In this document: positions 13,858 through 58,760 of the stretch, in pieces
How positions within the stretch are numbered: position 1 is the stretch's first letter
How the letters are laid out: each line of letters begins with the position of its first letter
Translations under genes and position numbers: made by a program
The notes under the pieces: generated by a model
What the model was told of the DNA's origin: nothing
What the model saw: the letters and a program-made list of their open reading frames with translations, nothing else
Database searches by the model: none
Source: Eledone cirrhosa
Lineage: Eukaryota
Assembly: GCA_964016885.1 (NCBI GenBank)
Contig: OZ024753.1
Coordinates: forward strand, 37,014,001 to 37,078,000
Direction: 5' to 3'
DNA length: 64,000 nt

Positions 13858-14411
13858 CTTTGGATTTTAGTCTCCAAATTTATTATTATTACGGGGTCGA
13901 TAAAATAAAGTACCAGTAATGCACTGGGTAATTGCTGGCCTTGTGCCTAAAGTAGAAAAAATTATTGACGGGCGTGAGAATGAGTACTCAATACAGGAGT
14001 AGAGTTTAAATATTCATTTATTCATTTGCTATGGCTCAGCTGTGAGCCTCGTTACTCTAGACCTTCACCTGTATACTCACAGGATCATTAGACAATACTC
14101 TTGCTATAGTAAATGAACATATATATACGCATATATATATATACACACATAGACACATATATATATGCATAAATATACATATACATTTATGTATGTATAT
14201 ATATATGTATATATATATATACACATATATATATATATATACACATAGACATATATATACGCATATATACATATACATTTATGTATATATATACATACAT
14301 ATACATTTATATATATATATATATATACACATATATATATACACACACAGACATATATATACGCACATATACATATACATTTATGTGTATATATATATAT
14401 ACATATACATT

Positions 14412-25103: not shown

Positions 25104-25461
25104 GTATATATATATATAGTATATATATATATACATATATATATAAATATATATATATAGTAATAATAATAAATGTGAAGACTAAAATCCAAAGGGGACT
25201 CGATAAGGATTATATATATAAATATATATAAAAACCGTAGAAGATCCCGTTAAGGGTGAAAGCAGCGATTCTTTGCTTAAACTTTAATCTGTTATTTTAA
25301 TAAATATATATATATATAAGTAAGTATGTTTTGAAACAGTGAGCAGGTTTGAAAATTAGAAAATAGAATAGCTTTCACTGTATTTTTGACTAAAGAAATG
25401 TTAGCCTGATAATGGGGTTTAGAACCCTCAGATAAATGGAAAAAGATGAGTATTGACGTAC

Positions 25462-25520
25462 ATGGGAGTCGAACCCACATCTTTGGTTATCCAGACCACT
25501 CTGCTTCCATTACACCAACA
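25462..25520 (-). other. tRNA-like head of a repeat (25328-25520; related body at 63488-63595)
   Basis: TGGTGTAATGG A box and GGTTCGACTCC B box without a clean cloverleaf. Confidence 0.6.
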
Positions 25521-25648
25521 CATCACCCAGTAATAGTAATACATATATATGTGCCTTAATAACACATACTAGGCATGCAACGTGTGTGAATGTATGTTCG
25601 ATATTGTGTGGGTATGTGTGAGTGTGTATGCATGCGTGGATTACTTAC

Positions 25649-34110: not shown

Positions 34111-34858
34111 CTGTAGAGAAAGAAGAATATGATATATATATATATATATATATATATGGCTGTACATCGTGGAAGATAGTCCGTATCATTTGTCTATTAT
34201 TTCTCCATAGTTACATTTTAAACTTATAGCCTCGTTTAAATGATTTTTTATGTGGTTGATTTATACGGACTAGGAGAGGAAATACTGTATATATTTTATC
34301 TAATAGTTCTTCAAACTTGCAATTTTATATACATGGAGGCACATGGCTTAGCGGTTAGAGCATTGGCCTTGCAATCGAAAGGTTGTGAGTTCAATTCTCA
34401 GACCGGGTGATGTGTTGTTTCCTTGAGCAAGACACTTTATTTCACATTGCTCCAGTTTACTCAGCTGTAGAAATGAGATGATAGGGACTGGGGTCCCTCT
34501 CATTCCACTGCAAAGTGGTCGTGGAGGTGCCACGGCAAAAAAGCACCCAGCACTCACTGTAAATGAGGTTGGTGTTAGGAAGGGCATCCAGCTGTAGAAA
34601 TCAAGCCAGAATCAGTTCCCGTCCCACCCTTGCAAGCAGGGAAAAAGCGGACGTAAAATGACATAATGATGAAATGATATATATATATCGAATAATGGAA
34701 AAGCGAAGTAGTTTCAGATGTTCACTTTTCCTTATTCGATATTTACTCCATCACTCCTATGTGGAATAAGTACGTTGAGTGCTTGAATTGAATTGCATCA
34801 ATGTTTACCCTAAGTATATATATATATATATATATGTGTGTATATATATATGTCTTCA

Positions 34859-34929
34859 TGTTTTATCTGATGAAAACACAAATATTATTGCATGATGATA
34901 TTTGTTTTTGAAATGCGCATAATAAAATA
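34859..34929 (+). ncRNA. Type I hammerhead, family C
   Basis: TGTTTTAT-CTGATGA-long stem II (CAAATAT/ATATTTG)-GAAA-TGCGCA-TA-ATAAAATA. Confidence 0.82.
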
Positions 34930-35602
34930 CATGGAACTCTTTTAACCATCTTTTGTTCTTATATATTATATGTGTATATATATGTATATGTATATATATA
35001 AATATATATATATATATTCACCACATATATATACAAACACACACACACAGAGTTCGGATCTAGCTGTCGAAACAACCGACGGCTCACCCGTCGGGGTCAT
35101 GACTCTTTTCTTATATATATATATGTAGCAGGTGAGTTTTATTGTAGGACAAAAAACTATGCATATATCGGAAAAGTAGCACTCAACAGTTTATTGGACT
35201 GGAGTATATATAAGAACTTTTTTAACCATCTTTTAATTTCTTCTTATATATATATATATATCATTTTCATTTCATTTCATTTTATGTCCACTTTTCCCTG
35301 CTTGCAAGGGTGGGACGGGAACTGATTCTGGCTTGATTTCTACAGCTGGATGCCCTTCCTAACACCAACCTCATTTACAGTGAGTGCTGGGTGCTTTTTT
35401 GCCGTGGCACCTCCACGACCACTTTGCAGTGGAATGAGAGGGACCCCAGTCCCTATCATCTCATTTCTACAGCTGAGTAAACTGGAGCAGTGTGAAATAA
35501 AGTGTCTTGCTCAAGGAAACAACACATCACCCGGTCTGAGAATTGAACTCACAACGTTTCGATTGCAAGGCCAATGCTCTAACCACTAAGCCATGTGCCT
35601 CC

Positions 35603-39363: not shown

Positions 39364-39397
39364 CTATAAAATAACAAAAGCATATTAGATTAAGCCC

Positions 39398-40300
39398 ATA
39401 CTGTAAAGTGGTCGTGTAGGTGTCAAGGCAAAAAGTACCCAATCCACACTGTAAAGTGGTCATGTCGGTGTCACAACAAAAGCACTCAGTCTACACTGTA
39501 AAGTGGTAGTGTAGGTATCAACACAAAATGCAGCCGGTCCACACTGTAAAGTGGTCATGTCGGTGTCACAACAAAAGCACTCAGTCTACACTGTAAAGTG
39601 GTAGTGTAGGTATCAACACAAAATGCAGCCGGTCCACACTGTAAAGTGGTCATGTCGGTGTCACAACAAAAGCACTCAGTTTACACTGTAAAGTGGTAGT
39701 GTAGGTATCAACACAAAATGCAGCCGGTCCACACTGTAAAGTGGTCATGTCGGTGTCACAACAAAAGCACTCAGTCTACACTGTAAAATGATTGTGTAGG
39801 TGTCAAGACAAAAAGCACCCAGTCCCTACTGTAAAGCGGTCATGTCGGTGTCACGACAAAAGCACCCAGTCCACACTGTAAAGTGGTTGTGTAGGTGTCA
39901 CGACGAAAAACACCCAGTCCACACTGTAAAGTGGTTGTGTAGGTGTCACGACAAAAGCACCCACTCCACACTGTAAAGTGGTTGTGTAGGTGTCACGACA
40001 AAAAGCACCCAGTCCACACTGTAAAGTGGTTGTGTAGGTGTCACGACGAAAAACACCCAGTCCACACTGTAAAGTGGTTGTGTAGGTGTCACGACAAAAG
40101 CACCCAGTCCACACTGTAAAGTGGTTGTGTAGGTGTCACGACAAAAAGCACCCAGTCCACACTGTAAAGTGGTTGTGTAGGTGTCACGACGAAAAACACC
40201 CAGTCCACACTGTAAAGTGGTTGTGTAGGTGTCACGACAAAAAGCACCCAGTACTCACTGTAAATGAGGTTGGGATTAGGAAGGGCATCTAGCTGTAGAA
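39398..40300 (+). repeat. Minisatellite of about 18 units of 47-48 bp derived from the RTE/SINE 3' UTR
   Basis: CACTGTAAAGTGGTTGTGTAGGTGTCACGACAAAAAGCACCCAGTC repeats running into the normal tail GTAAATGAGGTTGG..AGGAAGGGCATC. Confidence 0.92.
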
Positions 40301-46468: not shown

Positions 46469-46587
<119 letters not shown>

Positions 46588-46591
46588 CTAT

Positions 46592-46643
46592 TCCATTACC
46601 AAAGGTTTCAGGACTCTAGACAATAGCTCGTTCATCAGACAGA
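46592..46643 (-). ncRNA. Type I hammerhead, family D relative
   Basis: TCTGT-CTGATGA-...-GAAA-CCTTTGG-TA-ATGGA; stem II weak. Confidence 0.65.
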
Positions 46644-46774
46644 GATGTTATATATATATGAAAGTTCATATATACAGAGTTTCCCGAAAAAATGTATACA
46701 GACTTCAACAATATTCTAATAAATATGTGTATACATTTTGGGAGGACACCCTGTAGTTTCAACTCTTTGTTATG

Positions 46775-46848
<74 letters not shown>

Positions 46849-46852
<4 letters not shown>

Positions 46853-48451
46853 GGAGGTGAGTTTTATTGTAGTACAATAAAGCAGTGCAGATATCGGATA
46901 AGAAGCACTCTACAGTTTGTAGAACTGGAGTATACATAATATATAAGATCAAACTCTCGGCTAATTTTTGCAAACCCAAATACAACGTCAAACACAACTT
47001 CGCTAAATGTTCTTAATCCCATTCTAAATCAAGAAACTATTATTCCTATCGCAAATAACTTCTCCAATCCAATTCCTTCTATAGATAACACTAGGTCACT
47101 CGTTAATAATCTCTCTAATCGCAATTGCAATTGCCCTGCTAAAAATAAATGTCCTCTCAACAACCATTGTCTTGATAAAAACTTAATCTACCAATGTAAA
47201 GTTATAACTGACACCAATTCCTTCACCTATTTTGGCTCCACTTCCACCTCCTTTAAAGCTCGTCTTTATAATCATCATTCGTCTTTTAAATACCAACTGA
47301 AAAGAACCAACACGGCTCTCTCAGAACTCATATGGTCCTTGAAAGACAAAAATTTTAAATATAACATCTCTTGGAAAAAAGTTGAACAGTTCTCTATCCA
47401 AGACTTGCAATCTCTGTCTAAATGAAAAATTTACCATTATATCTAATGTAGATTCTATAATAAATAGACGCACTGACTTGTTTTCTATATGCTTGCATAA
47501 ATTCCACAGAACTTTCCATAAAGTATACAGCTAATATCCTAAGCTTTATCAATTCAGAATCCTTTTCTCAAAGGCCCATATATATATATATATACTTCTT
47601 TAAAAATATACCCATCTTTCTACCTTATTTCAAAGTTATTTATTATACATTATATAATACTTGTTACTCATTCTATATCACTCCTATTTATCACTTCCCT
47701 TTCTTCCTTTTCCTTTTCTTTTCTTTTTCTTTTCTTTTAATTTCTAACCCCTAATCTGTACCTTTTCTCCCTGTGCCTAACATAGAAACAATTATTACAC
47801 AATACAATATATTCTTACTTTATATCACCTTGAAAAAACCCTTCGTAAACATAAACATTTTTTTGACGTTAGATTATTCATCCTTTATTCATTATTTTTT
47901 TCTCCCTTTCATCTAACTTATTCATGCTCATCTCACAATATATCCTTACTTACATTACTTTTGTTTTTTTTAATAATACATATCAACATTTTCTTTCCAT
48001 CGCACATATTATTAAACCCTTAAATATTATTCTTAATACATATTAACATTTTCTTTCCATCGCACATATTATTAAACCCTTAAATATTATTCTTAATACA
48101 TATTAACAATTGCTTTTCATTGCACATATTATTAAACCCTTCAATATACAAACCTTAACTTTACATTATTTTTCTCTTCGTTAATTTTCAAATTCTTTTA
48201 ATTTATACATTATTTCCAACGGTTTTTCAACCTCTCTATGTAAAACAATATATTTTTCTCAGTTATAAAAGCTATCTCTCTCTCTCTATCACCCATCTCT
48301 CCTCCTATCTCATCCTTCCTCATTATACTCCTCCCCCTCCACTTTTTACTCTCATCTCCTCCTCTTTTTCATCCCCCCACCCCACCCCCTCAGAAAAAAA
48401 ATGTTTCCCCCAATATCACACATCAATCTAAAACTACTTTTCATATGTTGA
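46849..48451 (+). mobile_element. 5'-truncated Penelope-like element: inverted terminal piece, GIY-YIG endonuclease remnant (47120-47534), pyrimidine-rich 3' region
   Basis: CNC..CPL..CL..NLIY..YFG..FKARLYNHHSSF..TALSELIWSLK, frameshift, then CNLCLNEK..INRR..CLH*; 46849-46945 matches the terminus of the elements at 35124 and 56937. Confidence 0.88.
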
Positions 48452-48819
48452 TTATATATATATAGTGAAGGCATGTGGCTGAGTGGCTAGAGAATTGGAT
48501 TCGCAATCGTAAGGTTATGAGTTCGATTCCTGGACCAGGCGATGCGTTATGTCCTTGAGCAAGACACTTTATTTCACGTTGTTCCTTCTACCTGGAGTTG
48601 CGACCGATAGATAGTATTAGCAATTGGAAAGACCAACGGAAACATTGTTCCCTCGGTCCGATTTGACGAAAGTCGATCGCTCCCATTATATATATAAAAT
48701 TCATATGATTCCAGTTCCTCAGTGAAATAACAACCCAACCAGGAACTGGGCATATCAGAGTATTGACAAAGTTAAACACCTCAACAACATGTGTACTCGT
48801 CTCTACCACACTAATTCGG

Positions 48820-48874
48820 ACTGCCTGAAGAGGTCACAGCCAAAGATGGCTGTCACCGAAATATATATAGCAGT
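48820..48874 (+). ncRNA. Type I hammerhead, diverged family B
   Basis: ACTGC-CTGAAGA-GGT.ACAGCC/GGCTGT.ACC-GAAA-TATATA-TA-GCAGT; stem II covaries with the 43124 copy. Confidence 0.88.
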
Positions 48875-48979
48875 AATAAACGAAGCCAAATTTTAAACAT
48901 TTTACTTATTTATTTTATTTTATTTTATATATCCAGGGAGTGTAATCCAGGGAGTTACTGTAGGTTCACTCGGGTGAGC

Positions 48980-56668: not shown

Positions 56669-57321
56669 ATATATATTACATTCATTTAAATTATTGATGT
56701 ATTGTTTTATTGATATTTTTTATCTGTTTGTCCCGAATCTTCTATTATCGATTTTTTATCGTATGGTTGATTGTAGACTTGTTCTATATGTGACGGTATT
56801 TTAACGATAGTTATAGCTCTGATTCATCTGAATTATTGAGCCCTCTGCCGCTCATTTCGAATTTTGTTTATCGTGAACTCGTGCGCCGATTTTTCGATAC
56901 TCGATCTTTCTAATATATATATATATATATATATAATGTAGGAGGTGAGTTTTATTGTAGGACAATAAACCAATGCAAATATCGGATAAGTAGCACGCAA
57001 CAGTTTATTGGACTGGAGTATATATAAGAAGAAATTAAAAGATGGTTAAAAAAGTTCCAAGTATTTTATTATGCGCATTTCAAAAACAAATATCATCCTA
57101 GGACGATATTTGCGTTCTCATCAAATAGAATAGGGAAACATGATATGATGCCTAAAAAACACTTGTCAGCAAGGAAGTGTCCAGTCAACATATGATAAAT
57201 AAATTTAAAAGGATATAGAAGATTCTTCCAATCTTCTATATCCTTTGAAATTTATTTATCATATGTTGACTGTACACTTCCTTGCTCACAAGTGTTTTTT
57301 AGGCATCATATCATGTTTCCC

Positions 57322-57392
57322 TATTCTATCTGATGAGAACGCAAATATCGTCCTAGGATGATATTTGTTTTTGAAATGCGTATAATAAAATA
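57322..57392 (+). ncRNA. Type I hammerhead, family C; the minus-strand partner 57062-57132 has TTGATGA
   Basis: TATTCTAT-CTGATGA-...-GAAA-TGCGTA-TA-ATAAAATA. Confidence 0.75.
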
Positions 57393-57518
57393 CTTGGAAC
57401 TTTTTTAACCATCTTTTAATTTTTTCTTATATATATATATATATTGTAATAATAAATGTGAAAACTAAAATCCGAACAGGGCTCGATAAAGATTATATGT
57501 TCTTATAATAAATATATA

Positions 57519-58218: not shown

Positions 58219-58724
58219 TTTGTTATTGCTGTTGGTGATTTTTAAACGCTTCATTACCAAATTTCTTATAAAAGACATTGCCACTGATTTTCAAATAATT
58301 GTCTCTACTTTAGGCACAAGGCCAGCAATTACCCAGTGCATTACTGGTACTTTATTTTATCGACTCCGTAAGGATGAAAGGCAAAGTCAACCTCGGCGGG
58401 ATTTGAACTCAGATCGTAAAGGGACGTAACTATGCTGGAAAGCATGGCGTCCGACCCTCTACTGATACTGCCAATCCGAAAATAATCAATAATTTTAAGA
58501 CATCGTATTATAACATATAGTACTACAACAATTGGCAGTATCGGTAGAGGGTCGGAGACGATACCTCGTCGCATAGAGTTACGGCCCTTTACATTCTGAG
58601 TTCAAATCCCGCTGAGGTTGGCTTTGTCTTTCATCCTTACAGGGTGCCCCCCCCCCCAAAAAAAATGTGTACACACTATTATTAGAATGCTTTCGAAGTG
58701 TGTTTACATTTTTTGGGAACACCT

Positions 58725-58760
<36 letters not shown>

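Follow-up and report, generated by a model that had tools for sequence, protein, structure and literature searches.

The window analyzed here is a stretch of 64,000 nucleotides (nt) of Eledone cirrhosa DNA (assembly GCA_964016885.1, contig OZ024753.1, positions 37,014,001 to 37,078,000, forward strand). It is repeat-rich animal DNA with a GC content of 34.6% and many (TA)n tracts. At 46849-48453 it carries the remnant of a Penelope-like element (PLE), in which a C-terminal GIY-YIG endonuclease adjoins the inverted end of a group of hammerhead-bearing sequences designated family C. The arrangement of this remnant, together with its relatives, bears on where reverse transcription of such elements begins. 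The locus consists of the following features.

46773..46848: target (TA)n tract flanking the insertion on the left, from the sequence
46849..46953, minus strand: short inverted arm comprising the last family C end bases, a TA-rich spacer and an 83-nt tail, from sequence comparison; other copies run from 46943/46953 into the family C end
46904..46931, minus strand: bulged hairpin opening the tail, with a 4-bp outer stem, a 2-nt 3' bulge, a 4-bp inner stem and GCT
46951..46953: junction of the two arms, a 3-nt microhomology, from loose contig ends before 46951 and behind 46953
46951..47125, plus strand: open frame rich in N, S, T and P ahead of the zinc-finger-like motif, with at least 10 more in-frame codons upstream in other copies
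47126..47534, plus strand: Hydra-type GIY-YIG endonuclease with a frameshift near 47380-47395, from relatives, profile and fold matches
47535..48453, plus strand: long pyrimidine-rich 3' untranslated region (UTR), cut off ahead of its hammerhead; multi-copy throughout, and other copies continue into the family C end

The endonuclease is spread over two reading frames. Frame +2 contains CNCP (47126), CPL (47150), LIY (47183), YFG (47228), RLYNH (47261) and W (47372), and frame +3 contains CNLC (47406), CLH (47490) and the stop codon (47532-47534). When the window was searched with the best 150 relatives, the C-terminal piece was placed in frame +3 from ~47390, which implies one frameshift near 47380-47395. 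Of the 2143 pieces from six-frame translation of the window, a profile built from 24 full-length relatives matched the two endonuclease pieces alone (E values of 2e-31 and 3e-8), and the N-terminal piece had 3179 relatives at E<=0.001, the best with ~50% identity. The predicted model of the first piece reached a predicted local distance difference test score (pLDDT) of 93. Its top three fold matches, all with weak scores, were I-TevI (Z 5.5, root-mean-square deviation 2.4, 64 aligned), T4 EndoII (Z 4.6) and Hpy188I (Z 4.4), which are GIY-YIG nucleases. Pfam assigned no family to the two window pieces and recognized GIY-YIG in only 2 of 24 long relatives (E<=0.05); a PDB sequence search returned nothing below E 0.1, and a Foldseek search gave no match at E<=0.001. 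The endonuclease is C-terminal in its open reading frame (ORF), with the stop 14 codons past the start of CLH and the UTR directly next. An earlier interpretation made from the letters alone, here called the sequence-only reading, had described a frameshifted, Cys-rich GIY-YIG endonuclease at 46946-47534. The motifs, the frameshift and the relatives bear this out, and its start moves to 46951; positions 46932-46953 belong to the inverted arm, which overlaps the coding copy by three A's. The copy is 5'-truncated and frameshifted, a dead element remnant.

According to the text of Craig et al. 2021 (PMC8557442), the Hydra clade of PLEs is defined by a CxCx5C linker, a GIY-YIG core without CCHH, the motifs CxxC and CxH, RWK and DKT, a hammerhead and (TA)n targets. 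The remnant has the linker (CNC, five residues and C at 47126-47152), which 128 of the 150 best relatives share. In the alignment of its core, Y, Y-G, R and H are invariant and no Cys pair, hence no CCHH, stands between the two strands, and CxxC and CxH surround the catalytic E and N (CNLC at 47406, E, N, and CLH at 47490). The reverse transcriptase (RT), which in this clade shares the ORF and lacks the IFD, is absent from the truncated copy; among the 68 relatives of at least 660 amino acids in the 120 matches listed, RW[KR] occurs in 67, DK[TS] in 68 and YRDDG in 67. The locus itself is inserted into (TA)n, the target of 26 of the 27 Hydra families listed in PMC8557442. The canonical hammerhead at the 3' end, a ribozyme recognized at the sequence level, is found through other copies that join the UTR end to the family C hammerhead. 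Every endonuclease character of the clade is thus present, and these motifs assign the remnant to Hydra and not to Neptune, apparently as a new, otherwise ordinary family of this described clade. The Neptune/Hydra-like label of the sequence-only reading accordingly keeps its Hydra half (CxCx5C, no CCHH, CxxC/CxH) and loses the other, as neither the Cx2-5CxxC linker nor the CCHH motif of Neptune is present.

Three family C copies elsewhere in the window serve for comparison.

56937..57435: two-armed copy whose left arm has tail and hairpin and whose right arm has a type I hammerhead core (57330-57376)
34846..34966, plus strand: end with hammerhead (core 34867-34913), whose last bases are nearly identical to the inverted arm of the endonuclease copy
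35124..35255: minimal two-armed copy, a tail with hairpin (35205-35178, minus strand) and ~40 nt of the end

The sequence-only reading had placed a family C terminal extension next to the endonuclease, in the same inverted position as at 35124 and 56937, and so it proved: the extension at 46849 has 89.7% identity (116 nt) with that at 56937 and 86.4% (103 nt) with that at 35124, all in the same orientation. The copies at 34846-34966 and 57019-57435 have a hammerhead core of type I in which stem II is long, and they terminate in (TA)n; (TA)n stands at 46773-46848 and flanks the ends of the copies at 35124 and 56937. As observations on the variants themselves, stem II is unlike between the 34846 copy and the palindrome at 56937..57435, and in the left arm of that palindrome the first base of the hammerhead core is changed from C to T (57124, minus strand, vs 57330, plus strand), a change that is likely inactivating. 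Among the Rfam matches listed for the window (150 of 225), none was a hammerhead, and all were noise from microsatellites and palindromes.

Contigs of four public runs (at most three samples) were mapped on 46849-48453, with depths that are not copy numbers, and the region was multi-copy along its full length. On the 5' side, loose ends behind 46943 and 46953 in X3, X4 and X5 carry the family C end in reverse, and loose ends before 46951 added ten further open codons in other copies. On the 3' side, loose ends behind 48453 enter a 15-mer found at 57287-57301. In the reverse mapping on 57190-57490, X4 record 11 (150 nt) covers 57287-57377, including the whole hammerhead core, and its loose end has the letters of 48441-48453, i.e. 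the last UTR bases of the endonuclease copy; an X5 contig continues from 57435 into the tail. Depth in X1 climbs from ~3,000 to ~200,000 near 57287, indicating that what the abundant family C form shares is limited to the last ~150 nt. The link therefore holds for the terminal ~150 nt of family C (57287-57435), and the inner palindrome at 57xxx is a rarer variant. Within this range, contigs of other copies support at both ends the proposal that family C is the end of an endonuclease-positive PLE. The loose-end joins, together with an inverted arm that matches the end at 34846 almost letter for letter, establish the locus as a two-armed insertion in which both 3' ends face outward; three shared A's connect the arms, and the right end was lost at 48453. 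Inside the 3' UTR are a TA run (47580-47595) and a tandem repeat of three 60-nt units (47974-48153), which in one X4 contig has one unit fewer; a pattern search found no hammerhead core inside 47535..48453. Joints from 47595 to 46849 in the contig mapping were rejected as artefacts of the TA flanks.

The start of the window extension matches a hairpin of the published Hydra consensus sequences of PMC8557442 that we observed both at their 5' start and downstream of their 3' TA tract; the twin hairpin is visible there without description in the text. For comparison, we used 78 metagenome loci of Hydra relatives, retrieved from the best 80 of 468 matches and grouped into 56 families at 85%. Upstream of the ORF, a GCTC...GAGCACT motif was present in 46 of the 53 loci with enough sequence and in 40 of 43 families, against a background of 1 in 1142 ORF windows. 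The same motif followed the hammerhead within 220 nt in 38 of 61 loci, a count in which a few hammerhead pattern matches, e.g. L074, may be spurious. The hairpin is double in 28 of 39 families, with its copies 58-83 nt apart and the second shortly before the start codon, giving the Hydra layout hammerhead, hairpin 1, hairpin 2, start codon. Across 75 distinct instances, inner pairs 1-3, at positions that the motif leaves unconstrained, were Watson-Crick in 73/75, 48/75 and 31/44 cases vs shuffled means of 44.5, 20.1 and 12.4, counts that were reached by 0 of 5000 shuffles and that are inflated by kinship among loci. Pairs 2 and 3 employ all four pair types, and the inner pairs covary. The inner pairing appears only with a 2-nt bulge on the 3' side; for bulges of 0, 1, 3 and 4, the best of 16 tests was matched by 197 of 5000 shuffles. 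In the octopus-type form of the hairpin, the outer pair is A-U where the other form has G-C. The 28-letter tail pattern was found in 0 metagenome contigs, and no hammerhead core was found by pattern in seven loci with at least 350 nt downstream. Separately, the pattern recognized no standard hammerhead core in the family of locus L029 (290-330, 437-464), whose hairpin 2 and the family C hairpin of the window are nearly identical. Literature searched as text, including PMC8557442, PMC4209133, PMC7229834 and bioRxiv 10.64898/2026.07.22.740005, yielded no description of the hairpin, with figures, Repbase, Dfam and subscription papers outside that search; it is apparently an undescribed feature of the Hydra clade.

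The ends of individual copies gave this hairpin a position. A mappable 3' end was obtained for 22 of the 61 hammerhead loci, and 19 of these end 0-6 nt before a hairpin. After two loci sharing a flank were counted once, 18 of 21 distinct ends, from 17 families, fell in this interval (p ~5e-17 under a uniform null, independence assumed). Six ends lie before hairpin 1 and fifteen before hairpin 2. Because ends fall just before one hairpin or the other, the tail consists of hairpin 1 and a spacer and is the start of the next unit; what the sequence-only reading called an extension is the Penelope tail, which opens with the bulged hairpin. A+T makes up 81% (598/737) of the 10 nt that precede the hairpin.

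The same structure recurs in the window. A structure pattern gave 14 matches at 13 places vs a mean of 0.1 in 30 shuffles, with the hairpin at 57019 recovered with one mismatch. The pattern was written after the extension had been seen, and therefore only the 11 places outside family C constitute a fresh test.

Hairpin instances beyond family C: 8100(-), 18164(-), 27167(-); 22830(-); 43817(+); 7121(-), 50329(+), 60352(-); 42974(-); 34745(+); 14005(-)

The outer pair is A-U, a compensatory change, at 12 of the 13 places. For family C and four further families, the termini of sister arms, in most cases at (TA)n, lie no more than ~9 nt before the hairpin, and the tails span 58-85 nt until (TA)n is reached; a value of 37 for the tail at 35205 reflects an internal TA stretch and not tail length. 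No sister arm was found in the window for the hairpins at 14005, 34745 and 42974. Folding of three whole tails as RNA was only weakly better than shuffles (z -2.4, -2.1 and -1.1), and the 56937 copy folds differently. As tails in at least four further ribozyme-end families begin with the hairpin, which also occurs in three lone instances, most ribozyme elements of the window look Hydra-type, and its hairpin-bearing families outside family C are likely served by the same kind of enzyme.

We consider it probable that the locus is a dead two-armed insertion of a Hydra-clade element, other copies of which terminate in the family C hammerhead. An RT likely wrote it into a cut (TA)n tract from two fixed starts on one RNA, each just upstream of a conserved bulged hairpin. 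In this scheme, the RT-endonuclease protein would bind the hairpin and nick (TA)n, and the freed 3' end would prime on the AU-rich RNA just upstream of the hairpin, the likely landing place for the nicked (TA)n end. One DNA end would start at site 1 and yield the long plus arm, copied over at least 1.7 kb and later deprived of its end; from site 2, the other would yield the short minus arm, which would carry the tail because it started there. The two cDNAs would then join via the 3-nt microhomology at 46951-46953. In vitro, RT on the Poseidon element begins at two internal sites flanking the tail (PMC11167929), and we infer a comparable two-start mechanism for the window element, with the hairpin as the positioning signal.

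Several observations weigh against this reading and are given here with the alternatives. The hairpin likely positions the two starts, a role to which it is connected by positional correlation only. Three of the 22 mapped ends lie off the hairpin (12 nt, 27 nt and near none), and 39 of the 61 loci had no mappable end (20 without reference, 11 reading through, 8 at a contig end). T-A closes the inner stem of hairpin 1 in 16 of 31 families and never that of hairpin 2, so the two may not be equivalent; inner pair 1 thus tracks the slot, and its count overstates independent changes. Furthermore, the Poseidon start site is not homologous to its target (PMC11167929). The hairpin could be real and yet act elsewhere than at the RT start, as a DNA-level endonuclease signal, a promoter or translation element or a packaging site, with ends clustering through the adjacent AT-rich stretch. 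An upstream A+T content of 81% would alone favour priming on (TA)n, the Drosophila Penelope tail is needed for endonuclease recognition of DNA, as PMC11167929 recalls, and the excess of G-U over A-C pairs on the sense strand, 10 to 4, is too small to prove RNA structure. Yet other AT-rich stretches exist in the UTRs and the ends still fall 0-6 nt from the hairpin; both hairpins mark copy ends, though only hairpin 2 is near the start codon, and an arm ending at site 1 never has the hairpin in its DNA. We regard this alternative as unlikely, although it survives better than the others.

Less credible is an RT-less derivative, an endonuclease behind a low-complexity leader that kept Hydra ends and was moved in trans by another Hydra RT. 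The profile of full-length relatives found no RT of this endonuclease family in the window, and word-based protein searches found no close or long members of the family, only one distant match. At least 68 codons of low complexity precede CxC, vs 25-60 (median 29) in 114 relatives, and they lack the thumb motifs that relatives show within 60 residues; the distance from stop to hammerhead would be ~1 kb, an unusually long UTR, vs 50-533 nt in 61 relative loci. However, some relatives have long linkers (P0082 and P0003, judged by eye), 5' truncation accounts for the absence of an RT, the protein searches are word-based, and gene calling in repeats is poor. We consider this explanation improbable. 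Because no RT of the family was found, the part of 'motor' that the sequence-only reading proposed for this element is drawn from its relatives. The (TA)n preference is known for Hydra elements as an insertion preference (PMC8557442, in its text), and the nuclease is a possible candidate for its source.

A chance pile-up, in which the endonuclease piece stops at the TA run 47580-47595 and a separate family C element provides the UTR and the inverted arm, would find room in the weakly bridged contiguity over 47580-47766. None of the contigs listed spans the whole UTR, the best listed one extends only 22 nt beyond the internal TA run, a drop in depth occurs at 47713-47766, where repeats were skipped in mapping, and TA tracts gather insertions throughout the window. 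Neither hammerhead nor hairpin stands between the stop and this run, however, and the run is therefore not a normal element end. In addition, the inverted arm is fused directly to the coding sequence by microhomology, both sides indicate the same family C variant and depth is of one order on either side of the run. Such a pile-up is quite improbable. An element of Neptune or Nematis type, clades that according to the text of PMC8557442 also have a Cys-rich linker, is scarcely tenable given CxCx5C instead of Cx2-5CxxC, the lack of CCHH and the RWK and DKT of the long relatives, motif tests that already contradict it.

Beyond the reading of a two-armed insertion with two fixed starts, a broader model can be put forward tentatively, as a possibility that falls somewhat short of an even chance. 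The duplicated bulged hairpin might be a template-positioning signal, like the template boundary element of telomerase but on the other side of the template. Two subunits with one hairpin each would prime from both ends of cut (TA)n, producing inverted arms and a one-sided tail, and any RNA with the hairpin, including that of the genome's many protein-less ribozyme families, might be moved. Penelope-like RTs are the sister group of telomerase. Through the endonuclease remnant, the many ribozyme-bearing ends can be traced to a coding family, and a conserved RNA element comes to light at each of the two points where copies terminate, which bears on how Penelope-like RTs choose their RNA and start site and on one-sided tails. 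A hairpin of 20-30 nt with a fixed bulge makes start-site choice testable by few point mutants and, if sufficient, would be a portable signal for writing RNA into (TA)n.

Other features of the window were recorded in passing. At 46586-46640 (minus strand), 55 nt from the end of a different family, resembling 43415 and 43736 and including a hammerhead, enter the (TA)n tract 46472-46585. Another hammerhead family end (48690-48930, plus strand; core 48825-48861, like 19044 and 43129) comes right after a short interspersed repeat (48465-48690). Two related elements of ~85 nt (46675-46756 and 58636-58727), with short terminal inverted repeats beside TA, presumably resemble Tc1/mariner-type miniatures. 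ARAGORN identified a tRNA-Ser(GGA)-like gene at 25453-25525 (minus strand), and 39393-40272 is a tandem array of ~48/95-nt units, kin to part of a dispersed repeat.

Among known systems, the element is closest to the Hydra clade of C-terminal endonuclease-positive PLEs, which includes Hydra-1_Obim of Octopus bimaculoides. It shares the linker, the CCHH-less GIY-YIG core and CxxC/CxH, as well as the type I hammerhead near the 3' end, (TA)n targets and an inverted 5'-truncated arm. The Hydra elements themselves, with hammerheads, tails, inverted arms and a (TA)n bias, are already published, as is another octopus family (PMC8557442). The window element differs from Hydra-1_Obim in its endonuclease, hammerhead and ends, a different family as judged by eye, and from its clade relatives in a much longer UTR and linker. 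With Poseidon PAc of Anolis carolinensis (Frangieh et al. 2024, PMC11167929), it would share two internal RT starts with the tail between them, cleavage of AT-rich DNA and an upstream hammerhead. Poseidon PAc, however, starts in an AC-rich stem-loop inside the ORF and has a tail of 30-40 nt, whereas the putative starts of the window element are in the UTR, where the template is AU-rich, 58-83 nt from one another and each ahead of a hairpin that is repeated and occurs clade-wide. Metazoan non-LTR (long terminal repeat) retrozymes likewise carry type I hammerheads, in short non-coding repeats thought to be Penelope-dependent (PMC7229834 and bioRxiv 10.64898/2026.07.22.740005, in their text). Retrozymes are non-coding tandem hammerhead units, whereas the locus described here holds a coding remnant, and family C copies, single or inverted, are the truncated two-armed ends of a coding family.
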